Positions 4,501-41,901 of a stretch of DNA of 64,000 nucleotides are shown here, in pieces; position 1 is the stretch's first letter; every line of letters begins with the position of its first letter. The notes under the pieces were generated by a model that worked only from the letters and a program-made list of their open reading frames with translations, made no database searches and was not told the DNA's origin. The position numbers and the translations under genes were made by a program. The DNA is from an uncultured Bacilli bacterium (lineage in GTDB: Bacteria > Bacillota_I > Bacilli_A > RFN20 > CAG-449): positions 6,318 through 70,317 of the forward strand of contig CANQTY010000002.1 of NCBI GenBank assembly GCA_947626895.1. Reading direction: 5' to 3'.

Positions 4501-6405
4501 TTAGTCACCTTTAGGAGTAGGAACATTATCTTTCCATTCCCATTGATTCTTCCAATAGACTTTAAATTTATTTCCATTCCAATATTGACTCCAAGCCGTT
4601 GGAGTTTTTACCTCATCACAATAAATTACAGGATTTGTACAATCTGAAAACATACCTCGATCAATCATTTCAACTCCAGCAGGAATGTAAATCCATTCTA
4701 AAGCCTTAGCATATTGGAAGCAATATTCTTCAATCGTTTTTACACCCTTACCGATTTTTACTGATTTTAGACTATTTGTATGTTCTGCATCAGGACCAGA
4801 ATCAGTAAATCCCATGAATGCATTTTTCCCTAGACGGATAACACTATCAGGTATTTCTAAATGTTCTAGTTTTTCAAATGCACAATTGAAGGCACCAGAT
4901 TCAATATATTGAACTTTTCCTAAATCAACTGATTTAATTTTTGTGCAATTATAAAAAGCTCCATCTGCGATGAATCTAACATCTTTACGTACAACAACAT
5001 CTTCAATGTTATCATCTAAAGGTTCATATAGCACCATATAAGGATTCGATTTACTTCCTAAATAATTATAATTTTCATCGGTTGTATATTGTAGTGAATA
5101 CCAATTATTTGCGGCAAAACCTGCACCTAAATAAGTTAGTGAATTAGGTAAATATAAATTCTTTAAATATGTACAATTGTAAAATGCATAATAACTAATA
5201 TGTGTCATTCCTTCATTGCATTCAATTTCTCTAACATAATCATCATTATGAAATGCATATGTACCTACTTTATCTGCATCAGTAATGGTTAAAGAATATG
5301 GATGTCCAATTGAATGACTCTCAAAAATATATTTCATTTTGTTTTTAAGATATTTTGAATCTGAATCTCCATAGGAATCAACAGATACATTAGCATCCCG
5401 ACTTGCTCCAACAAAAGGAAGATAAAATTTTGTAAAAGAGTTCAAATTGCTTTCAAGTTTAAATGCACCATCTCCAATGGTTTGTACACTATTTGGAACA
5501 GAAATGACTTTTGCTTTTGTATAAGATACAAATGCTTTAGAAGGAATTTCTCTTACAGGCTTTTCTTCGATTGTGCTTGGAATACGTAATTCAAAGTTAT
5601 CTAAATTATTGATTGTTCTAGCATCTTCCCCTTCTTTGATGGAAATATATTGATTATTACCTTCGCCTTTAATTTCATAAGCAAATAGCTTTCTTTCGGT
5701 AAATATAGGAGTTAAAGTTACGTCTTCTTTAACTTCATTTAATTTTTCACTATTATTCCAACCCGTAAAGAAGTATTGAGAATAAGCACCATTTGATGCA
5801 CTATCTTCTTTTGAGGGTACCTTACCTTTATATGTAACAGAAGATCCATATTCTACTATTTGAGTATCAAGAGTATTTCCCTTATCATCTTGAAATGTAA
5901 TAGTAAACTTTTTTAATACTTCTTTAAATCTTGCATATAAAGTCGTATTTTCATTAAAAGTTAAAGTACTTAAATCTACTATTTTCCCATCAATAGATAA
6001 ACTCCATCCTTCAAAAGTATATTCTTGTACTCTATTTTCTTCCGTACTTGGTACATTTTTAGTTGGAGTATCTCCTTGATAAGTTACTTTTCCTCCCTTA
6101 TCAATATAAACAAAAGTAAGTTCACTATCATCATCGTTTTTAAATGTAATTTTCACTTTATTAGTTAAATCAATACTTGATGAAGTTTGACTATCTTGTG
6201 ATGAACTATCTTCACTTGAAGTGCTAGTAGTGTCACTATTACTTGAAGATACTTCTTCATCACTAGTTAAAGAACTATCTAAAGAAGTAATTTCACTATT
6301 TTGTGAATAAATGGAGGTATTTTCTTCTTTTTCACAAGATACATTAATTACACTACATAAGCCTATTATGCTTAATAATAAGCCCTTTTTTATACTTTTT
6401 TTCAT
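4501..6405 (-). CDS. Surface lipoprotein with a Ser-rich linker, Listeria-Bacteroides (Flg_new) repeats and a BspA-type leucine-rich-repeat domain.
   Basis: Signal peptide plus lipobox (LCSVINVSC). S/T/D-rich low-complexity region. Repeats EYTFEGWSL and SQYFFTGWNN (Flg_new GW motif). LRR-like NCTYLKNLYLPNSLTYLGAGF segments. Confidence 0.65.
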   Translation of the reverse strand: MKKSIKKGLLLSIIGLCSVINVSCEKEENTSIYSQNSEITSLDSSLTSDEEVSSSNSDTTSTSSEDSSSQDSQTSSSIDLTNKVKITFKNDDDSELTFVYIDKGGKVTYQGDTPTKNVPSTEENRVQEYTFEGWSLSIDGKIVDLSTLTFNENTTLYARFKEVLKKFTITFQDDKGNTLDTQIVEYGSSVTYKGKVPSKEDSASNGAYSQYFFTGWNNSEKLNEVKEDVTLTPIFTERKLFAYEIKGEGNNQYISIKEGEDARTINNLDNFELRIPSTIEEKPVREIPSKAFVSYTKAKVISVPNSVQTIGDGAFKLESNLNSFTKFYLPFVGASRDANVSVDSYGDSDSKYLKNKMKYIFESHSIGHPYSLTITDADKVGTYAFHNDDYVREIECNEGMTHISYYAFYNCTYLKNLYLPNSLTYLGAGFAANNWYSLQYTTDENYNYLGSKSNPYMVLYEPLDDNIEDVVVRKDVRFIADGAFYNCTKIKSVDLGKVQYIESGAFNCAFEKLEHLEIPDSVIRLGKNAFMGFTDSGPDAEHTNSLKSVKIGKGVKTIEEYCFQYAKALEWIYIPAGVEMIDRGMFSDCTNPVIYCDEVKTPTAWSQYWNGNKFKVYWKNQWEWKDNVPTPKGD

Positions 6406-6843
6406 TATTTATCAACCTTTCTACGCCTTTACTTCCGAGTAATATTAGCATGATTTATATTTGAACTCAACAATTATTTTCTTTTTTGTACATTAAAGTT
6501 CACTATGCTTTTTTTGTTTGTTCACAAAAAAGAAAGTCCAATCACTGGACATTCTTACTTATTATTGAGTAAAACTATGAAATATAATTTGTTGCATTAA
6601 TCGAATAAATATATAACTTTCTAATGCTGCATAATTATAAGATTTATTTAATATACTGCGATTTTATATTTGCTTTATGCTTAAAAATTTTAAAGATAAA
6701 CTATTCAAACCAATAGTTACATACAAACCTGATGGATTTCTTATTAGTGAAAAGTATGTTTCAAAATTATCATTAGTTAGTTTTATAGTAATATTACTCT
6801 ATCCTTCACTCTTATTTGCTACTTCATTATAGATAGAATGCAA

Positions 6844-8130
6844 TTAGAGACCTTTTATTTTATTAAATGCTATACAACAAATTCCTAATACCAATCCTAA
6901 AATAAGAGAAACAACACCAAAAATAATATTTCCAGTACCAAAACCCGTGATTGTTCCAGGGACACAAAGTGCAGCTAAAAATCCAAGTAAAACCCGACCA
7001 AAGCTAGGTTTATTGTAACGATATGACATATCATTATAAGAACTCCGTTTAGCACTCCGAATTTGCTTTCGAAATTTAATAAGGTCTTTCTTTAATTGGA
7101 TAAGTTGAGTTTTATCTTCATTCAGTTGCTCAACAATAATTTCAAGTTCAGCAAAAACATGGCTTAAAATCTGTATTAAATAAATTAATGCTTCAATGAA
7201 TGAAATACTATCATTCACCTTTTTTTCAAGTATTTCCAATGCTATTGATTTATTAATTTCTCTTTCAATTGCCAAACAATATTTTGTGTGAAAATCTGCT
7301 TTATTCAAATTATCCATTGTATTTTGCAACATCTTTTGAGAAGCATAACAAAGATCTATAAGCCGATTGCGAAAATCAAATACCAATTTTTTGCTTTTTT
7401 CGTGCTGTCCACCACGGGCTTGTGCGTTTTTTTGTAAGGGTTGAGCGTAGTGGTCCCAATCTTTTAAAACTACTTCCAGTTCTTTAATCTTATCTTGTAA
7501 ATCGGGAGATAATGATTCGCCACTATTGAAATCATCGCAAATGCTTTCAATTTCATTAAAGTATTTATTACATTCATCTTCTTTACTTTGCAAAGTTTCG
7601 CTCATGGTCAATTCATAGTGTGCCATTAACTCATCGATAAAGAAACTTGCAAAATTGCTATTTTTAACGATTTGATTAAAAATGTTTACATGAGTTTCCA
7701 CATCAAAACCATCAAGATATGAATTAGCAGATGAAATACATTCTTGTCTAATCTTCTCCATCATCACAACTATGTCATTTTCACTTTCAATTTGAGAATA
7801 ACCACCTACAAGCCGCGCATCGTTTATTTTATCAAATAATTCGACATTTTCTTTTTCAAACCATAGTCCAATATTAATGAAAATATCTGCTATATTAACA
7901 ATGGTAGGTTTTTGGTTACTATTAACCATTTGTCGAAAATCATGAAAATCGTCCCTACAGAAATATTCAATTTCGTGACGTAATCTTTTTTTGAGATTTG
8001 TTAAATCAGAGTAAGCTTCTTGTACTTCGCTTGTATCGTCAGAAAGTAATTCTTTTTCTTCGAGTAGTTCCTGTAATCGTTCGCTGCTATCAGTCGGAGT
8101 AGCACCGAGAATGGAAAATGCATCAAACAT
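6844..8130 (-). CDS. Coiled-coil protein with a C-terminal TM hairpin. The N-terminus is weakly J-domain-like but has no HPD motif. Candidate membrane-anchored partner of the adjacent Hsp70 paralog.
   Basis: 428 aa. N-terminus MFDAFSILGATPTDSSERLQELLEEK resembles the start of a J domain but no HPD follows. Two C-terminal TM helices (VLLGFLAALCVPG…IIFGVVSLILGLVLGICCIAF). Confidence 0.4.
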   Translation of the reverse strand: MFDAFSILGATPTDSSERLQELLEEKELLSDDTSEVQEAYSDLTNLKKRLRHEIEYFCRDDFHDFRQMVNSNQKPTIVNIADIFINIGLWFEKENVELFDKINDARLVGGYSQIESENDIVVMMEKIRQECISSANSYLDGFDVETHVNIFNQIVKNSNFASFFIDELMAHYELTMSETLQSKEDECNKYFNEIESICDDFNSGESLSPDLQDKIKELEVVLKDWDHYAQPLQKNAQARGGQHEKSKKLVFDFRNRLIDLCYASQKMLQNTMDNLNKADFHTKYCLAIEREINKSIALEILEKKVNDSISFIEALIYLIQILSHVFAELEIIVEQLNEDKTQLIQLKKDLIKFRKQIRSAKRSSYNDMSYRYNKPSFGRVLLGFLAALCVPGTITGFGTGNIIFGVVSLILGLVLGICCIAFNKIKGL

Positions 8131-8260
8131 TTGTTAATATGCTCCTTTCTTTCTTACAATATTTGAAAAATAATTATGTTAAATCAAATAATGTTTGCTT
8201 TAAACTCATTGTTTAAGTTTTTTAAATCAAATTGACTATTTAGTTTAATTGATTTAACTC

Positions 8261-9481
8261 TTATTTTGTTAGACCAGATCCCTTTAGCATCACATCTAAT
8301 TCAGAATCTTCTTTTGGTATTCTAATTTGAAGTAATCTAGAAATAATGTTTTTTAAACTGCTAATATCATTTTGCTGAACATATTGTATTCCTTGAATAA
8401 TAAGTTCATGATAGAGCACGGAATTATTGAAATCTTGGGGATTCTCTGCCATAAAAGAAAAAATAGCTAGGTAAATTTCATCATTGCTAAACATAACTTT
8501 TGCAGTAATTTCACGCATTTGTTCTAATAATTTTTCAGCAGTTGACGAATTCATATCAATTGCTCTTTGCGCACTCTCTTTTAGACTATTGAATTGCTTT
8601 ATCATAGCAGGAGTAGCATTTTCTTCAAATGTAGTAAAATCATGAACAATTGAATCAAGTTCTTGTTGCCAAACCGATGTTCTATTTTCTTGTATAAAGG
8701 CGGCAACAACTCCTTTACTTGTTTGAACTAATTCAAATAAGGTTTGTAATTCTTCTGCACTCAATTCATCACCACGTTCAACATAAGCAATAATTTTTTC
8801 TGCTATATCATCCAATTTTGTATCAAATTGGTTTTCGGTCAACTCGTCAATTTTATCGAGTAGATTTTGTGCTTCATTTAATACCTTTTCGTAATCATTA
8901 TTAAAATCGATTTGTCCACTTAATCTATCATAGCTATCTTTTGCTTCTGTAATTCCTACAGATGGAACAGTGACCTTTGTTTCAATATTTCCACTATCTG
9001 AAAAAGTATATTCGCAGATAATTTCACTTCCGACAGGGATTATCCCGTATTCAAAAGAATTTCCACTAATTGTTATTTCCCCAATAAACCTATTGTAAAC
9101 AATGGGATCAGTAATTTCACCTTCCCAAAGTTTAAAGGAAATTGAATCGGAACTACCTGCATTAATACGCTTCGTCGTTTTGTATTTAACAGTTCCACTC
9201 TTAGGAAGCAAATCATCTTTTTTAATAAGATAATCTAGAATTGGTTTATGAGTTACAGGATCTTCTAATTCTACTCCAACAGAATGAGCACATGGAATTT
9301 TTCCAATATTTATAAGCGTCTTTGTGATGACGATAGTTGAACTTTCTAATTTTATATCAGCACCATTTTCATCTGTACATTGAACGTTAAAATGATTTTC
9401 TCCCAAGTTTGGTAAATCAACGGAAACGATAGAATTACTTGCAAGTTCCATTTTCCACTCATCCAGCCAGTTTCCATACAC
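8261..9481 (-). CDS. C-terminal portion (substrate-binding beta-sandwich plus helical lid) of a non-canonical Hsp70. It is in a different frame from the upstream nucleotide-binding-domain ORF.
   Basis: KLWEGEITDPIVYNRFIGEITISGNSFEYGIIPVGSEIICEYTFSDSGNIETKV parallels the DnaK SBD-beta region (…VLQGER…[31 protein letters not shown]…). A helical region follows. It overlaps the 9352..10728 ORF by 130 nt. Confidence 0.6.
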   Translation of the reverse strand: MYGNWLDEWKMELASNSIVSVDLPNLGENHFNVQCTDENGADIKLESSTIVITKTLINIGKIPCAHSVGVELEDPVTHKPILDYLIKKDDLLPKSGTVKYKTTKRINAGSSDSISFKLWEGEITDPIVYNRFIGEITISGNSFEYGIIPVGSEIICEYTFSDSGNIETKVTVPSVGITEAKDSYDRLSGQIDFNNDYEKVLNEAQNLLDKIDELTENQFDTKLDDIAEKIIAYVERGDELSAEELQTLFELVQTSKGVVAAFIQENRTSVWQQELDSIVHDFTTFEENATPAMIKQFNSLKESAQRAIDMNSSTAEKLLEQMREITAKVMFSNDEIYLAIFSFMAENPQDFNNSVLYHELIIQGIQYVQQNDISSLKNIISRLLQIRIPKEDSELDVMLKGSGLTK

Positions 9482-10728
9482 TTAAACTCAAATTCTAATT
9501 TATTAGCATTTTGAAAAACAACCGCGATTTTAGCCTTATCCGCAGAAGTACGGGCATTATAACGAAATTCCAATCCATACGCGCTAGCCTTGACTATTCC
9601 CTTTTCATTTTTCTGTCCGCCTTTTGTTTTTTCAAAATCAACACTTTCGGCATAGATTGCAGCACCCTCGCTAACCGCTGTCATGGGATTAACATCGTTA
9701 TTCGCAGCAATGCCGAGTTCATGCGACACTTTGTCACGCATAAATTTATATTGTGTTGGTCCCCCTACAAAGACAATACAATTAATGTCTTCGGGTTTTA
9801 ATCCAACGTTTTCAATGACTTGACGCGTTTTTACTATAGTTTCATCAATTTTTGGCTCTATTAATGAATTATATTGAGAACGAGTAACTGGTACTTCTAA
9901 ATATATTTCATTATTATCTTCATCCATGCAATGGATTGCACTTTCATCAAGACGAACAACAGCAGATTCTTGAGCTGATAATTCGATTTTTGCCTGTTCA
10001 GTTGCCCAAATTGCCACACGAATAAGTTTTGCATATTTGTCTTTTATTCTGAAATTTTCTGGAAGATTAAAGTTCTCGTGTAACCATGGTAAAACAACAT
10101 TATCGAAAAGCAAAGTATCAAAGTCACGACCTCCACAAAAAGATATTCCATCATTAGTTAAAAGATTGATTTTGCTACCAACACGCTCTGCAATCGATAC
10201 ATCAAAAGTGCCTCCACCGAAATCATATACTAAAAAGACTCCATTGATATTTTGTTGTTTTGCTATACTCATAATTGCAGCAACAGGTTCTTGTATGAGG
10301 GCAACTTTTTTGATTCCAGCACTAAAAGCAGCTTGTTTTGTTGCATCTTTTTGCATTTGATTAAAAGCCGCTGGAACAGTTATGACAGTTCCTGTTTTTT
10401 CATCGTTACGTACTTCCTCTGGTAAATATCCAAAGAGTGTTCTTAAAACTTCTGCAGAACATTCTTCAGGTGTCATTTCAATATCACCCAATTTAAGCTT
10501 CGTACTTGTTCCCATCAAACGCTTAAAAAGAAGTGTGGCATTATCAGGGTTAAGTGGAGCATTATCATATGCTTTCTTTCCGCAAAACATACCACCACGT
10601 TTTGCTATATAAATCGCACTTGGTGTGACATCATTTTGCTCAGGACTTTTCCAAACACGAGTTGTTTTTCCATCAAAAGACGTAATTGCGCTATTTGTTG
10701 TTCCTAAATCAATACCAATATACATCAT
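9352..10728 (-). CDS. Hsp70-family ATPase, nucleotide-binding domain plus an insert. It terminates out of frame and continues in the 8261..9481 ORF, so this is either a frameshifted gene (pseudogene) or a sequence error.
   Basis: Hsp70 signatures MMYIGIDLGTTNSAI, VYDFGGGTFDVSI and IVFVGGPTQYKFMRDKV. The C-terminal tail CMETGWMSGKWNLQ… looks like an out-of-frame read of VYGNWLDEWKMELAS… from the next ORF. Confidence 0.7.
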   Translation of the reverse strand: MMYIGIDLGTTNSAITSFDGKTTRVWKSPEQNDVTPSAIYIAKRGGMFCGKKAYDNAPLNPDNATLLFKRLMGTSTKLKLGDIEMTPEECSAEVLRTLFGYLPEEVRNDEKTGTVITVPAAFNQMQKDATKQAAFSAGIKKVALIQEPVAAIMSIAKQQNINGVFLVYDFGGGTFDVSIAERVGSKINLLTNDGISFCGGRDFDTLLFDNVVLPWLHENFNLPENFRIKDKYAKLIRVAIWATEQAKIELSAQESAVVRLDESAIHCMDEDNNEIYLEVPVTRSQYNSLIEPKIDETIVKTRQVIENVGLKPEDINCIVFVGGPTQYKFMRDKVSHELGIAANNDVNPMTAVSEGAAIYAESVDFEKTKGGQKNEKGIVKASAYGLEFRYNARTSADKAKIAVVFQNANKLEFEFKCMETGWMSGKWNLQVILSFPLIYQTWEKIILTFNVQMKMVLI

Positions 10729-11138
10729 TCATTATCCTCCAGTTTTTTATTTACTTCATAAATCTCTTTACGAGAAAGGCTCACTGTACCAATTCTAATA
10801 ATATTACCTTCCGACGTTATCACCGTAGGCTCAATTGTCTGTTCCACGATTAACTGATTGGAGACATCAAATTCATCCACATTTAAGGGAGTTACAGGTA
10901 AACCTTCATCGTATTCCCAACCATCAAAAAATCCAAGTTTTAAATCGAATTTTTCCATTAATTCACGAACCTTATTTTCGTGATAGGTATAAGCGGAAAT
11001 ATAACGTTTTGAATCCTCGCCGTAAATTTTTTTTACTGCAGAAGAGAATGTACGCATGAATCTATATTCTTCCACTACAAATTCGGCTATAATACGAAGC
11101 GTTTCCATATCTTTTTTTTCACTATTTTTTATATTCAT
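10725..11138 (-). CDS. Small acidic protein of unknown family whose stop overlaps the Hsp70 start (ATGA). Its C-terminus has a weak, very tentative resemblance to GrpE nucleotide-exchange factors.
   Basis: 137 aa. C-terminal …FDGWEYDEGLPVTPLNVDEFDVSNQLIVEQTIEPTVITSEGNIIRIGTVSLSRKEIY was compared by eye with the GrpE C-terminal beta domain. This is not a confident assignment. Confidence 0.3.
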   Translation of the reverse strand: MNIKNSEKKDMETLRIIAEFVVEEYRFMRTFSSAVKKIYGEDSKRYISAYTYHENKVRELMEKFDLKLGFFDGWEYDEGLPVTPLNVDEFDVSNQLIVEQTIEPTVITSEGNIIRIGTVSLSRKEIYEVNKKLEDNE

Positions 11139-11338: not shown

Positions 11339-12670
11339 TTAATTATTCGTTACTTCCCAATAACCTCGGGTATTCCCAACACGCCTAATATAACCCATTT
11401 CTTTTAATTTATTGAGCATTCTTTGTATAGTTCTTGAGGATTTTTCCATTTTATTAGAAAGAACTCCAATAGAGCTTTTAGGTTGATTTTTTAAGAATGA
11501 TAAAATAATCTTCTCTTCTTCTTTAAGAACTTCTTCTCTAGAATTTAATTTATTGCGTCTAAAATAATTATGACGCAAAAAAATGAAAGAAAAGCCTAAA
11601 GAACCCATAATGTAATCTATACCTACATGATTTTTCTTACATTCTGCATAGACATTTTTAAAACCACTTCCAAATGCTTCAACATCCTCGGATAGATATA
11701 AAGTATCTAGAATTAAAGGATTTCTTATTACAGAATGTAAATCTTCTTTCACAAAATCCTCTGGAGTATATCCAATAGGAAAAGTTCCAGGATTATAGAT
11801 ACTAATTTTACTTGGGTAAATTTCTATACAATGTTCAGTTGCAGTATTATATCGTGCATGAGCAAAACTATTACAAATGATTTCTCTTAAAGATTTTAAG
11901 GGAATTTCAGGTGTTTCTACGCGAGACATATCAATGATTTCTGCTTTCCACATGATTTTTTCTTTGATGTAATCTTCTGCTTCATCCATTAGATCAATGA
12001 TATTTCCCTTGATTCTTCTGATATCTAAAAAAGTATATCTTTCGTCTGTAGCGAATACTGCCATTTTTAAAACAATCGGATTTAAAGATGAAAATAAATA
12101 ATAACAAGCATTAGTTAAATAATTATCTTTTATTAATCCTAATCTTTTTAAAACCATTTCAGGATTATTCCCTATATCTTTTAATCTACCACATTTAGTA
12201 GCCTTTCTATAAAACTTATCAAAAGAATCTAATTTAATATCTTTGAATGTATAATTTGTAAGTTTTTTATCCCAACTACTTTCATTATTGTATTCGAAAA
12301 GTTTTCTTAAATCATTATATGGAATTTTTCTATCTTCATCCGCGCTTCGAATATAAAATATTCCATTACAAGAATAAGGTTTTTCTTCACCATTAAATTC
12401 TACTTCAATAACAGCTTTATCATTAAACATTACACGACGTATGATAGGTGTAATCGTCGGAGTAATTGATTCATAAATTTTTCTAGAAATATCTCTTAAA
12501 GTTGATTCAGTTACCCCTTGACCATTAACCTCTCCATTTGGATAAACACCAAAATAAAGCGTTCCTCTTCCATGTTTGTTAAGCATTGCACAAATGGAGA
12601 TTAAAGCTTCTTTTAATTCACCAGTTGATTTTTTAAATTCTAATGTTTCATCTTCCATTCCTAAATTCAT
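11339..12670 (-). CDS. AlbA_2 (Schlafen-like) DNA-binding domain, HATPase_c_4-like domain and C-terminal wHTH: a putative regulator of the RecG-C-terminal-like class.
   Basis: N-terminal EFKKSTGELKEALISICAMLNKHGRGTLYFGV is the AlbA_2 signature. C-terminal LKNQPKSSIGVLSNKMEKSSRTIQRMLNKLKEMGYIRRVG is a winged HTH. Confidence 0.6.
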   Translation of the reverse strand: MNLGMEDETLEFKKSTGELKEALISICAMLNKHGRGTLYFGVYPNGEVNGQGVTESTLRDISRKIYESITPTITPIIRRVMFNDKAVIEVEFNGEEKPYSCNGIFYIRSADEDRKIPYNDLRKLFEYNNESSWDKKLTNYTFKDIKLDSFDKFYRKATKCGRLKDIGNNPEMVLKRLGLIKDNYLTNACYYLFSSLNPIVLKMAVFATDERYTFLDIRRIKGNIIDLMDEAEDYIKEKIMWKAEIIDMSRVETPEIPLKSLREIICNSFAHARYNTATEHCIEIYPSKISIYNPGTFPIGYTPEDFVKEDLHSVIRNPLILDTLYLSEDVEAFGSGFKNVYAECKKNHVGIDYIMGSLGFSFIFLRHNYFRRNKLNSREEVLKEEEKIILSFLKNQPKSSIGVLSNKMEKSSRTIQRMLNKLKEMGYIRRVGNTRGYWEVTNN

Positions 12671-38048: not shown

Positions 38049-40580
38049 TTACTTCATTTTTTTAATGATATAATCGGTATCATCATAGAAATTCGTAGTA
38101 CATTCTACGACATAATCTTTATCGAAGAAAGTTCTTACTAAACCCACTAAAAGATACTTGTTCCAAGGATAATCAAATGAAGGTAATCCGAAATATCCAT
38201 TAAAGGTATTTGTATCGATAGAATCTGCATTCAAGAAGAGTAAATCTAAAAGCTTTTTCACTTCATTAATCTTCTCTTTTTGTCTTGAAAAACGCGACTT
38301 TTTAACCATCGTATCCATATTGACTTGAACATAATCATCACTCATTTCATCCATGAAGGATAAATAGCTATATAATCCACGCATATTTAGTTTAGCACTA
38401 TAATTTTTAATCGTTTTAAAATCAAATTTATCTAACGTCTTCACATAGTTTTTAATGACCGTATGAGCATTTCTATAACCTTGATTTTCTGTGGAAATGA
38501 TTGGTCTACTATAGAAATATTTATCTTTAAAATAATACTTAATTAAGGAGAATAAAGCATATTGATCATAAGCGATTTTTAATCCATCAAGAAGTTCTTT
38601 ATGATCTGTAGCGAGTTTTGCATAAATCTTTCTTGAAGTAATGATTTTTGTATCCATTTCATTCATCAATTCATCAATATAATTTCCCAATTTTTCGACT
38701 GCATCTAAATCAATAGAAACATTTTTAAGATAAATGAAACGATTATAGGCTAAACAAATTAAGCCATTTTGTTCTTCTTTATAGATTAAGGTATAAATCG
38801 TATAATCTTTAATTCCTATAAACTTTTCTTTTAATTCTTCAAGAGTGAAACTACCTTGATAGGATTGCATCGCATGAATGATTGATTCTCCACTTGTAAC
38901 AAAGACATCACCAATAGATATATAATCTCTTTTGGTATTAAATTCGCTTCCTAATAAGGGATCAAGAACGCCCTTTAAGTAATAACGATTGCTAATTCCA
39001 AGCGCGGTTAATGGTTCTTTAAAATGTTCAAAAACCGATAAATAATAGACCATTGGTTTACTTTGCAAGATGTAATTTACAATTTCATCTTTTAATTCTT
39101 CATCAAGCGTTAAACAACTTTCTCTATTTCTATAAGTGCCTTTATCTATTTGACAATAAGATGCTCTTTCTAAATATCCTTGAATTGAATGAGGTGAAGG
39201 AATTTCATTATTCTTTCCATATTTCTTTTCAAATATTTCTTTTAATTTGGCATATTGAGCATTATTTCCTAATTTATACCCATCTGGATATAAAGAATCG
39301 ATTAAATCAAGCATTAAATCTTTAATCGAAGTTCCATTTTTTAAATAGATGCCCTTTTGGTATTCATGATAATGAAATTGAATTAAATTCTTTTTAAAAT
39401 TCGATAATGTAGAAATTTCTTCTTGACCTAAAGAATTTCCTAATTCATGAAGGGTATCTTTTACTAATTCTTCTTCATTTAATTCTTCTTTATTAAAGAT
39501 GATTTGTAATTCAGTATCAAAATGAATATTAAAATCTAAAACTTTCATGACTAATAAAGCACAATAAGCGACATAAATATCTTTAATATAGGAAATAAAA
39601 CTTGCTTCCTCTATAAAGCTTTTATGCTCTACATTTACATAGTTATATAAAGCAGTGACGATTTCTTTTACTTTACTTCCATGCTCATTTAAGATATTTA
39701 AAGCTTTTGCTTCAATTTGACGAATTCTTTCTCTTGATAAATTATTTTGATTACCTAAGGCTTCAAGGGTTAAAGGTTCTACATCACCAAAGCCAAAACG
39801 CGCATAAATTACTTCTCTTTGTAAAGGACTTAATAAATTAAAGAACTCGATGATTTTATTTTTATATGTCGATTTAAAGCTCTCTTGCAAAAGTGCTAAA
39901 TTAGAAATCATATCATCGACATGATTGCCCAAAATCAATAAAAGTGAATCGATAGAACAATTCTTTAAATCTTTAATAAAATTGATTCCGTTTGCAAACA
40001 TGATATCTAAAATTAAACGATTTTCAATAATATAACTCAAAGGAAAATCATTATAATCTAGACTTACTTTATCTAAAGCTTCACTTAACGCGCGGGTCCT
40101 TTCTAGATAATTAAGATACATATCAAAGAACAAGGCATCATAATAATCTAAAGGATAAGAAGCTTCTTCTTTAATTAATGCTAATCTTAAAGAATAATAA
40201 TCCATTAACATAAATGGAGCTTTACCAATGAAAGAAGAAAGCTCTGAAATTAAAGTATTTTTATCTTTTAAAACATCACTTGCTAAACTATCTTGGAATC
40301 TTTTTAAATGCTTAAAACAAGTCCATTGATCATCTTTTAAAGTGACATATAAAGTGGAAACACGTCTTGCTTTAACCGCGAAATGTTCCTCGATAAACTT
40401 TCTTAAATTCTTTTGGTTTACAGAACCATATATTTCATCTAAATATAAGGTTAACTGTTCCAAGGTGGCAACATCATGATTACCAATAAATAAGGCACAT
40501 TTAAAGAATAAATATCGTTCTTCAATATAAAATGATGGATAACTATCAATGCGCCTAGCAAAAAAAACATCATTACTCAT
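38049..40580 (-). CDS. Large (843 aa) hypothetical protein containing a primary-sigma-like region 4.2 HTH but no recognisable sigma regions 2/3.
   Basis: [48 protein letters not shown] aligns with sigma-70 r4.2 (LTAREAKVLRMRFGI…[27 protein letters not shown]). Nothing else in the protein is recognisable. Confidence 0.55.
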   Translation of the reverse strand: [843 protein letters not shown]

Positions 40581-40701
40581 ACAACAACCCTCATATTTAA
40601 TAATACAACAAAATAGAAAATTAAAATAGAAAATAATTGAGATTTTTGTGAAATTTTTTTAAGACTAGTTGAAAATTTATGATATTTTATACAAAAAAAC
40701 A

Positions 40702-41901
40702 TTAATAATCTCCATTTAGAAAGTAAGCAATATCAATGATTTTAATTCCTTCATAAATCATTTCATCATGATGTGTCCTTGCAATAATCATCTTAGGATA
40801 AGCATCTTTAATCGCAAGTAAGGACTTATATTCTCTTTCAAAAGTATGTGGATCATCTAAAAAATCACATACTTGAATATAAAGTTTTTGTGCTTGTTTT
40901 ATGGCGACAAAATCAATTTCTTTATCATAAAGTTTACCAATATAAACATCATATCCCCTTCTTAATAGTTCAATATAAACCATATTTTCATAAGCTCTAC
41001 CATAATCCATATTTACTGTACCCGTTAGAGCATATTTAAAAGCAACATCACATAAATAATATTTAAAGCTACTTTCTAAATATTTTTTCCCTCGAACATC
41101 ATATCGCTTTACTTTATAAAACATAAAGGAATTTTCAAAGAAGGAAATATATTTATCTACAGTTTTTCTTGTAATATCACTTTTATTTTGCGTATTTAAA
41201 CTATTGGCAATGTTATTTGGTGATATTAAATTTCCAATATTTGCCATCATATAGCGGGAAACTAGAAGTAAATCATTTACTTTTTTAATCTTATATTTAT
41301 CAATTAAATCCTTAATTAATATCGTATTATAAACATTTTTAAGATGAGTTAATTTTTCTTCTTCAGAATATAGAAAATTTTCGCTCATTCCCCCGTACAT
41401 CAAATAAGAAAAAAGCATTTCATCAACTTTATCTTCCATATGAAAATACTCTAAATATTCATGATATGAAAAAGGAAACACCTCTATATCCATAACTCTA
41501 CCTGAAAATAAAGTAGCTAAATCTGAAGTCAAAAGGAAAGCATTAGAACCTGTAATATAAATATCAAATAAATTCTTAGAATGCAAACTATTGATAGCTA
41601 ATTCAAATTGAGAACAAAGTTCAACCTCATCAATTAAAACAACATTATGTTTATTCTTTTGATAATGATCCATAACATACTGATGCAAAGCATGATAAGA
41701 AAGTAAAGATGCATTTTCTAATTCTTGAAGATTAATAAAAATTATATTGGCATCTTTTTCATTTTCCTTTAAATAATCTATAAATTGAGATAAAAGAACA
41801 GATTTTCCACATCGTCGAATTCCTGTAATAACCTTAATCGATGGAGTATTACTTAAGCGAATCATTTTGTCTAAATATCTTTTTCGAATAATATATTTCA
41901 T
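40702..41901 (-). CDS. AAA+ ATPase of the AAA_14/DUF4143 family.
   Basis: N-terminal KVITGIRRCGKSVL Walker A, LIDEVE Walker B and a DUF4143-like C-terminus. Confidence 0.6.
   Translation of the reverse strand: MKYIIRKRYLDKMIRLSNTPSIKVITGIRRCGKSVLLSQFIDYLKENEKDANIIFINLQELENASLLSYHALHQYVMDHYQKNKHNVVLIDEVELCSQFELAINSLHSKNLFDIYITGSNAFLLTSDLATLFSGRVMDIEVFPFSYHEYLEYFHMEDKVDEMLFSYLMYGGMSENFLYSEEEKLTHLKNVYNTILIKDLIDKYKIKKVNDLLLVSRYMMANIGNLISPNNIANSLNTQNKSDITRKTVDKYISFFENSFMFYKVKRYDVRGKKYLESSFKYYLCDVAFKYALTGTVNMDYGRAYENMVYIELLRRGYDVYIGKLYDKEIDFVAIKQAQKLYIQVCDFLDDPHTFEREYKSLLAIKDAYPKMIIARTHHDEMIYEGIKIIDIAYFLNGDY

Follow-up and report, generated by a model that had tools for sequence, protein, structure and literature searches.

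A probable inactivated remnant of a mobile four-gene Hsp70 module on a contig of an uncultured Bacilli bacterium

We analysed a 64-kb stretch of the genome of an uncultured Bacilli bacterium (contig CANQTY010000002.1; hereafter the window), and in particular an Hsp70 locus at positions 6844-11138. A preliminary description made from the letters alone had presented this locus as a self-contained module of three co-directional genes, encoding a small protein, an Hsp70 paralogue and a membrane-anchored J-like protein. Minus-strand, co-directional open reading frames (ORFs) do fill the region at the coordinates first given, all of which were verified, and the TGA stop of the first gene overlaps the first Hsp70 ATG as ATGA. 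The region is otherwise surrounded by core genes, in a chromosome of about 30% G+C (GC). Comparison with related loci indicates that it is probably what is left, after a recent inactivation, of a conserved four-gene module borne by mobile elements. The genes are numbered below by their place in the intact module, the third being absent from the window.

10725..11138, minus strand: gene 1 (W137), 137 aa, putative GrpE-like nucleotide-exchange factor.
9352-10728 and 8261-9481, minus strand: two overlapping Hsp70 ORFs in different frames, together one split gene (gene 2).
9442..10728, minus strand: 5' part of gene 2, nucleotide-binding domain (NBD) and first half of a family-specific insert, in frame 1 until the frameshift.
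9451..9454, minus strand: frameshift site, a run of four A where intact relatives have five; a 1-nt deletion in the DNA alignment with L001, L013, L015 and L004.
8261..9454, minus strand: 3' part of gene 2, in frame 2, with the rest of the β-rich insert, the β part of the substrate-binding domain (SBD-beta) and a C-terminal helical region of ~230 aa.
8131..8260, minus strand: deletion scar, a 130-nt AT-rich spacer at the place where all close relatives have a 1.34-kb AAA ATPase gene.
6844..8130, minus strand: gene 4 (W428), truncated, 428 aa, with a J-like N-terminus, a helical domain and a transmembrane (TM) hairpin.
6664..6843, minus strand: pseudogenised remnant of the gene 4 extracellular domain, in the frame of W428 and broken by stop codons.
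6536..6550, minus strand: terminator-like hairpin followed by a T-run, 3' of the gene 4 remnant (consensus match only).

The gene cluster recurs in other genomes. In all same-clade relatives with enough flanking sequence, the gene order is small protein, Hsp70, AAA ATPase and gene 4 homologue, and this order is seen in over 20 loci (L001-L007, L012-L020 and L025-L035), from uncultured Clostridia, Christensenellaceae, Elusimicrobiaceae and one bin labelled Parasutterella. Within the unit, genes are separated by about 10 nt or overlap. The conserved unit thus has four genes, including a Cdc48/VAT-like AAA ATPase that has been lost in the window, and the view of the three genes as self-contained has to be given up. 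Judged by these loci, the intact four-gene family is conserved, uncharacterised and widespread; we found no description of such a system in the searchable literature.

The AAA ATPase (gene 3) of the relatives is 444-447 aa long and matches PF00004 at 6e-31. Its best matches in the PDB are VAT, NVL, AFG2 and Cdc48 (E 5e-57 to 1e-50). The alignment retains the Walker A motif GPPGCGKT, the Walker B motif IDEME, the arginine-finger segment RRGRFD and the pore-loop tyrosine. These matches place it in the classical clade (Cdc48/VAT-like) of AAA ATPases; it has a single ring and an N-terminal domain of ~200 aa. As far as motifs can tell, both ATPases, the Hsp70 and the AAA protein, look catalytically intact in the relatives.

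Comparison with these relatives reveals features of the window copy that could not be seen from the window alone. In gene 2, a single A is missing: relatives read GGAAAAATGG where the window reads GGAAAATGG. The part of the gene before the break is 93% identical to residues 1-428 of P0001, the closest intact homologue (821 aa), and the part after it, in the next frame, is 84% identical to residues 425-821. Addition of one A restores an ORF of 822 codons with no internal stop. Homologues of this Hsp70 are abundant and are uniformly single ORFs of ~821 aa. The frameshift, which had been noticed before any comparison was made, falls inside the β-rich insert domain, and the same allele is present in two independently assembled metagenome contigs, L008 and L009.

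The AAA gene is found between Hsp70 and gene 4 in every other locus of the window's clade, whereas tblastn detects no trace of the AAA protein in 8131-8260 or elsewhere at the window locus. Similarity to relatives within this spacer is limited to about 30 nt before the gene 4 start, in the ribosome-binding-site region. Gene 4 itself is cut short: W428 is 63% identical to residues 1-429 of the 563-aa homologue in L001 and ends just after the second TM helix (TM2), and the same frame runs on past two stop codons and a deletion of the third TM helix (TM3). The remnant translates as '...SNITIKLTNDNFETYFSL...', which aligns with the 'SNFExYF' region of both P0127 (E 3e-6 in a local database) and P0140 (64% identity over 14 aa); the stretch '...ITIKLTNDNFETYFSL...' corresponds to the extracellular 'SNFExYF' segment of intact gene 4 homologues. 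The terminator-like hairpin lies about 300 nt further on, past the gene 4 remnant, and probably marks the end of the operon.

Three independent lesions in one operon are a signature of decay, and the loss of the AAA gene together with the two further lesions indicates a decaying remnant rather than a working module. The window module is, on this comparison, very probably non-functional. The whole organisation, lesions included, recurs in contigs of four further samples whose identity to the window is 97.9-100%. Non-synonymous divergence (dN) 3' of the frameshift is 0.082 between the window and L001, compared with 0.081 between two intact relatives; there is no excess of dN after the frameshift, and the decay is therefore recent. 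Synonymous divergence (dS) over 8261-10728 against L001 is saturated (>2.5), so that a dN/dS test for relaxed constraint is uninformative on dS, while amino-acid identity is 84-94%. The saturated dS implies a long earlier period of purifying selection in an AT-rich lineage. Read in this way, the transferred Hsp70 gene first ameliorated, under strong purifying selection, to a host of ~30% GC and was inactivated only recently.

An artefact of assembly or sequencing, with an Hsp70 that is intact in the organism, is a highly unlikely explanation of the frameshift. The lesion is a change in homopolymer length and the supporting metagenome contigs have only ~3x coverage, as one might expect of an artefact; the window nevertheless shares the four-A allele with two samples that were assembled independently, runs of four or five bases are not error-prone on short-read platforms, and the frameshift is accompanied by two larger lesions that cannot be artefacts.

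We also considered that the locus might be a functional three-gene variant that does without the AAA ATPase, its Hsp70 being made as two polypeptides or through low-level -1 slippage. The distant relative L023/L024 carries only the small protein, the Hsp70 and a J-like TM protein, with no AAA gene. Short gene 4 forms of 442-467 aa circulate in other lineages, and the arrangement is kept in strains whose DNA diverges by as much as 2%. Re-pairing of Lys-tRNA by -1 on GGA_AAA_T could, moreover, restore the exact conserved peptide SGKM. Against this, all relatives at 63-93% identity have the AAA gene and an unbroken 821-aa Hsp70, the break lies within a β-rich domain, gene 4 is followed by in-frame remnants interrupted by stops, and the three separate lesions speak for decay. 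There is neither a slippery heptamer nor an A-run long enough for transcriptional slippage. This reading is, in our view, quite unlikely. Programmed frameshifting at the Hsp70 break was assessed in its own right and judged unlikely, given the lack of a slippery heptamer and the run of four A against five in intact relatives. In L023 (154-4233), the high-GC three-gene variant adjoins a 1359-aa helicase-nuclease-type protein with the domains DUF4011, AAA_11, AAA_12 and MTES_1575, a domain set associated with defence systems.

A split Hsp70 gene occurs once more, in L039 (IncP plasmid pKAM471_1 of Aeromonas caviae, 7885-10382), as ORFs of 545 aa and 200 aa. The near-identical Shewanella copy L038 has an intact Hsp70, and on this comparison L039 represents a second independent inactivation of the same gene.

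The window gene is recognised as an Hsp70 by Pfam (PF00012, 5.4e-57, 193.8 bits against a cutoff of 20.6) and by the NCBIfam DnaK model (6e-66), in both cases over the NBD only; the single-sequence Pfam search stops short of SBD-beta. A profile of the family matches DnaK NBDs at E 1e-100. Residues K68, E146, D168, T173 and D175, equivalent by alignment inspection to DnaK K70, E171, D194, T199 and D201, do not vary in any of 35 diverse members of the family. The profile also matches DnaK beyond the NBD, with positions 493-691 on DnaK 376-563, a stretch that covers SBD-beta and the beginning of the lid (i-E 2.3e-5). Against E. coli HscC, hhalign aligns both the NBD and SBD-beta (the latter to HscC 358-458) at E 3e-46 and leaves about 115 family-specific, β-rich columns unpaired between them. 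The inter-domain insert is therefore real. It is ~115-125 residues long, the NBD ending near residue 365 and SBD-beta starting at ~482-493, and it occupies the place of the canonical linker; the family consensus has no conserved motif of the DVLLLD type. A helical tail of ~230 aa follows SBD-beta. The earlier identification of gene 2 as a bona fide Hsp70 with an inter-domain insert thus stands, and by these alignments it is a true Hsp70 that belongs to a distinct subfamily. A search with only its C-terminal 393 aa finds 361 clusters at 50% identity, and the full-length members among those listed have ~815-865 aa. Family members occur in Clostridia, Elusimicrobia, Proteobacteria and Actinobacteria.

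Gene 1-type proteins are 125-160 aa long. W137 has no match in Pfam or NCBIfam, and a profile of its family finds no GrpE among its matches in PDB sequences. An hhalign comparison with E. coli GrpE is not significant (P 0.064), with 53-123 placed against 126-194 in the expected register. The predicted model has one long N-terminal helix (3-63) followed by a small β domain (66-123). This arrangement of a long N-terminal helix and a compact C-terminal β domain supports, at the level of the predicted fold, assignment of gene 1 to the GrpE fold, and the protein is presumed to act as nucleotide-exchange factor for its Hsp70. The resemblance to GrpE that had been suggested from the C-terminus is thus borne out by the structural model and not by sequence.

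The AlphaFold2 model of W428 is entirely helical (mean predicted local distance difference test score, pLDDT, 87.5). Five short helices at 4-70 are followed by long helices at 77-373 and by two hydrophobic helices at 377-427, which gives three parts: a J-like N-terminus (~1-57), a conserved helical domain (~77-373) and a TM hairpin (377-427). The protein is predicted to be membrane-anchored, by two or three hydrophobic helices depending on the homologue. Its N-terminal pattern is 'F.ILG...(14-residue helix)...AY.DLTNPKKRL'. The gene 4 N-terminus scores 83% probability (P 8e-6) in hhalign against a small, hand-assembled J-domain alignment, and 43% (P 2.5e-4) against the real J domain of E. coli DnaJ. 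An unbiased hmmsearch of all PDB sequences returned J domains as 8 of 19 matches, in a common register, at E 0.06-1.4. The His-Pro-Asp (HPD) tripeptide is found in none of 25 + 10 aligned members of the gene 4 family, and the HPD loop is deleted relative to DnaJ in every alignment. From this weak but reproducible similarity, the gene 4 N-terminus is likely, but not proven, to be a J-like domain without HPD, in line with the first description of the 428-aa protein as an HPD-less J-like protein with a TM hairpin.

Full-length gene 4 homologues are 560-680 aa long and consist of a W428-like part followed by TM3 and a variable extracellular domain, which in some of them contains Listeria-Bacteroides repeats. 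Other homologues have a Cys-rich tail in place of the membrane part. This C-terminus, 'GCY[IV]AT.VYGSYDCPEVW.LRRYRD', replaces both the TM hairpin and the extracellular domain in P0124, P0129, P0130, P0142, P0145, P0147 and P0149, and by its sequence it is a distinct module. In L001, the closest intact relative, the gene 4 product (P0122, 11812-13503, 563 aa) has a low-complexity tail right after 'KSGYEFMGYY'; its extracellular domain may be decaying too, because the Flg_new repeat looks frameshifted.

Gene order varies outside the clade of the window. On Shewanella and Aeromonas plasmids and in L022, a Joint Genome Institute (JGI) contig, all four components are present and the J-like gene stands apart from the AAA gene; in L022 it is convergent. 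The plasmid order is small protein, Hsp70, AAA ATPase, a TM/peptidoglycan-binding protein and, as fifth gene, a 672-aa J-like protein. In L038, on a Shewanella xiamenensis plasmid (11828-19143), the protein after the AAA gene combines TM and PG_binding_1 segments, and the 672-aa J-like protein has an N-terminal zinc-ribbon-like CxxC pair. The 3' genes of this operon are four hypotheticals, one of them with a weak T2SS-M-like match, and an RDD-family membrane protein; Pfam marks the T2SS-M-like and the RDD protein as membrane-associated. This longer operon with membrane-associated genes suggests an envelope-associated assembly in Proteobacteria.

Within about 5 kb of many copies lie genes for serine recombinases, tyrosine integrases, Rep and Fic proteins, and on the Shewanella and Aeromonas plasmids TnsABCDE of a Tn7-like element is directly upstream. 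These flanks identify the module as mobile-element cargo, and as far as gene neighbourhoods show, the intact copies ride small integrative elements and plasmid-borne Tn7-like transposons. No recombinase related to those beside other copies is left in the 64-kb window. A phage origin finds no support: there is no gene 4 relative in IMG/VR, no match to the Hsp70 C-terminus in INPHARED, and the PHROG matches are generic only. In PADLOC-DB 2.0, no module protein has a specific defence-model match, and P0001, gene 4 and W137 have zero matches; the AAA protein is generically similar to IetA/TRIP13, and there is one 36-residue match of the NBD to PDC-M61B (4.6e-4). A location in defence islands, which had been raised for related clusters, does not agree with the few known defence genes that PADLOC finds in the flanks. 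By its neighbours, the context of the module is that of mobile-element cargo rather than of classical defence islands.

In an intact module, the J-like domain would tether the Hsp70 to the membrane, docking it without classical HPD-dependent stimulation. HPD normally engages the canonical Hsp70 linker, and docking of this kind is consistent with the loss of that linker. The GrpE-like protein would recycle the Hsp70 by accelerating nucleotide exchange. The Cdc48-like AAA ring, together with Hsp70, might act on a protein at the membrane by unfolding, remodelling or extracting it; the pairing of Hsp70 with a Cdc48-type AAA protein parallels membrane-protein extraction. Such a machine may help the mobile element in conflict, through defence or exclusion, or have an envelope-associated function.

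Several observations weigh against the reading of the locus as the remnant of such a machine. The sequence of W137 is not significantly similar to that of GrpE, no single test of the J-like domain gives more than a marginal signal, and fold searches with the whole gene 4 model give generic helical bundles and no J domains. The putative nucleotide-exchange and co-chaperone roles are drawn from fold and weak profile similarity only. L023, a distant relative of actinobacterial type, naturally has no AAA gene, and an AAA-less core may therefore be able to function. In the window itself, the two Hsp70 fragments might retain some activity, and the frame might on rare occasions be regained by -1 slippage on A_AAA. 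Finally, the flanks are not enriched in known defence genes, of which few are present, and for this reason the case for a conflict role is made by the module's status as mobile-element cargo and by nothing else.

A more specific reading, which we put forward tentatively as one possibility, is that the four-gene family is an undescribed mobile, membrane-tethered Hsp70/AAA+ conflict system in which the J-like membrane protein is sensor or effector and the chaperones check or activate it. The hypervariable extracellular domain would then belong to a sensor and/or a membrane-active effector, which the chaperones would restrain or would activate on infection or invasion, amounting to chaperone-gated abortive infection or exclusion. 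Repeated inactivation, in the window and on the Aeromonas plasmid, would reflect the cost of the system.

The module could instead be a transferable proteostasis or stress module with no part in conflict, in which Hsp70 and the AAA+ protein form a bi-chaperone disaggregase for envelope-proximal proteins. The chaperone logic is complete, with Hsp70, a nucleotide-exchange-like factor, a J-like protein and an AAA+ unfoldase, and the scarcity of known defence genes in the flanks agrees with it. Heat-resistance islands, the transmissible locus for protein quality control (TLPQC) and the locus of heat resistance (LHR), with their small heat-shock proteins (sHsps) and ClpG/ClpK disaggregases, are also typically carried by mobile elements. 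The module, however, contains no gene for an sHsp, a protease or a double-ring disaggregase of the ClpB/ClpG type, and its J-like domain has no HPD. The membrane anchor and hypervariable extracellular domain point to sensing or surface interaction more readily than to bulk disaggregation, and the recurrent inactivated copies (the window and the Aeromonas plasmid) suggest a costly or conditionally useful system. We regard this reading as unlikely; a conflict or exclusion role for the mobile element is somewhat more likely than transferable stress tolerance.

The module resembles the canonical DnaK-GrpE-DnaJ system in having an Hsp70 with a conserved ATPase core and homologous SBD-beta, a partner of predicted GrpE fold encoded directly upstream and translationally coupled, and a further partner whose N-terminus aligns weakly with J-domain helices I-IV. 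It differs in each component. The Hsp70 has an insert of ~115-125 aa instead of a DVLLLD-type linker, and a longer helical tail; the GrpE-like protein is a short one of 125-160 aa that is unrecognisable by sequence; and the J-like domain, from which the HPD loop is missing, forms part of a membrane protein. In addition, the operon includes an AAA ATPase, and the module is borne by mobile elements.

The layout had been compared with that of E. coli HscC and DjlC/DjlB, and in architecture the parallel holds: in both, an Hsp70 paralogue lies beside a protein with an N-terminal J (or J-like) domain and a C-terminal TM anchor, and the NBD and SBD-beta align with HscC as described above. Orthology of the two systems is extremely unlikely. 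The ~115-aa insert and the long helical tail are missing from HscC. The gene 4 profile matches DjlC with 1.3% hhalign probability, over the TM segment only, and the J-like N-terminus matches that of DjlC with 0.1%, so that gene 4 has no detectable DjlC homology; DjlC and DjlB have HPD, which gene 4 lacks. The hscC locus has no gene for a GrpE-like or other nucleotide-exchange factor and no AAA gene. Orthology with HscC-DjlC was accordingly rejected on the DjlC probabilities and the insert.

A parts list similar to that of the module is found in the mitochondrial presequence translocase-associated motor (PAM), which comprises mtHsp70, Mge1/GrpE, Pam18 and the HPD-less Pam16. The analogy lies in the combination of an Hsp70, a GrpE-type exchange factor and a membrane-associated, HPD-less J-like protein. 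The two are not linked by descent; the module has no identified component of a translocon, and it has an AAA ATPase in addition.

Two described groups of bacterial systems are closer in context. GAP1-N2 GTPase-centric conflict systems include HSP70-GrpE-DnaJ-fusion modules (Kaur et al. 2020, PMC7159879); they form accessory operons of Firmicutes and Actinobacteria and are read by those authors as conflict systems. They have a dedicated Hsp70 and GrpE and a J domain fused to a protein with β-rich repeats, a combination that the GrpE-like and J-like parts of the present module resemble. They differ in being centred on a GTPase, in whose position the module has a Cdc48-like AAA ATPase, and the J-like domain of the module has no HPD; the Hsp70 subfamilies are compared here by description only. 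CnuD, with Hsp70-like NBD-SBD and HEAT units, belongs to type III CoCoNuT McrBC systems (Bell et al. 2024, PMC11090510), and shares with gene 2 a divergent Hsp70 NBD/SBD with a helical extension in an accessory system that contains an NTPase. The ATPase motifs of CnuD are degenerate and it is linked to a McrB GTPase and HEPN; in the module, again compared by description, the catalytic residues are invariant, partners resembling a nucleotide-exchange factor and a J protein are present, and there is no nuclease or McrBC gene.

Bacterial derivatives of DnaK have been said to remain 'dark matter' (PMC13580251), and the window locus points to a coherent and widespread family among them, that of the 361 clusters. 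Ordinary as a pseudogene, the window copy is useful in that it leads to a four-component Hsp70 system that is widely mobile and uncharacterised. The family lends itself to asking how Hsp70 allostery works in the absence of both the canonical linker and HPD, and whether mobile elements use chaperone machines as weapons or as envelope devices. For annotation, the three ORFs of the window should be entered as a pseudogenised relic and left out of any count of functional chaperone systems. No canonical dnaK operon is present in the 64-kb window.

Two neighbours of the locus that had been named from the sequence, a Schlafen-type regulator and a surface lipoprotein, are confirmed by Pfam.

11339..12670, minus strand: AlbA_2/Schlafen + HATPase_c_4 + winged helix-turn-helix (wHTH) regulator, upstream neighbour.
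4501-6405, minus strand: 634-aa BspA-type leucine-rich repeat (LRR) lipoprotein, downstream neighbour (PF13306, 1.4e-35).

A regulator of the same composition lies beside the module in L035 (345-1742, minus strand), and PF04326 is found in 3 of 69 flank ORFs across 11 loci other than the window. The AlbA_2-type regulator is thus a recurring neighbour outside the module core, and may be either a linked regulator or common mobile-element cargo. The 634-aa lipoprotein has a Ser/Thr-rich linker and accompanies the relic in all contigs of the same lineage. Elsewhere in the window, at 38049-41901 on the minus strand, an 843-aa ORF and a 399-aa P-loop ATPase ('GIRRCGKSVLL') lie amid core sporulation and division genes and may represent another accessory insertion.

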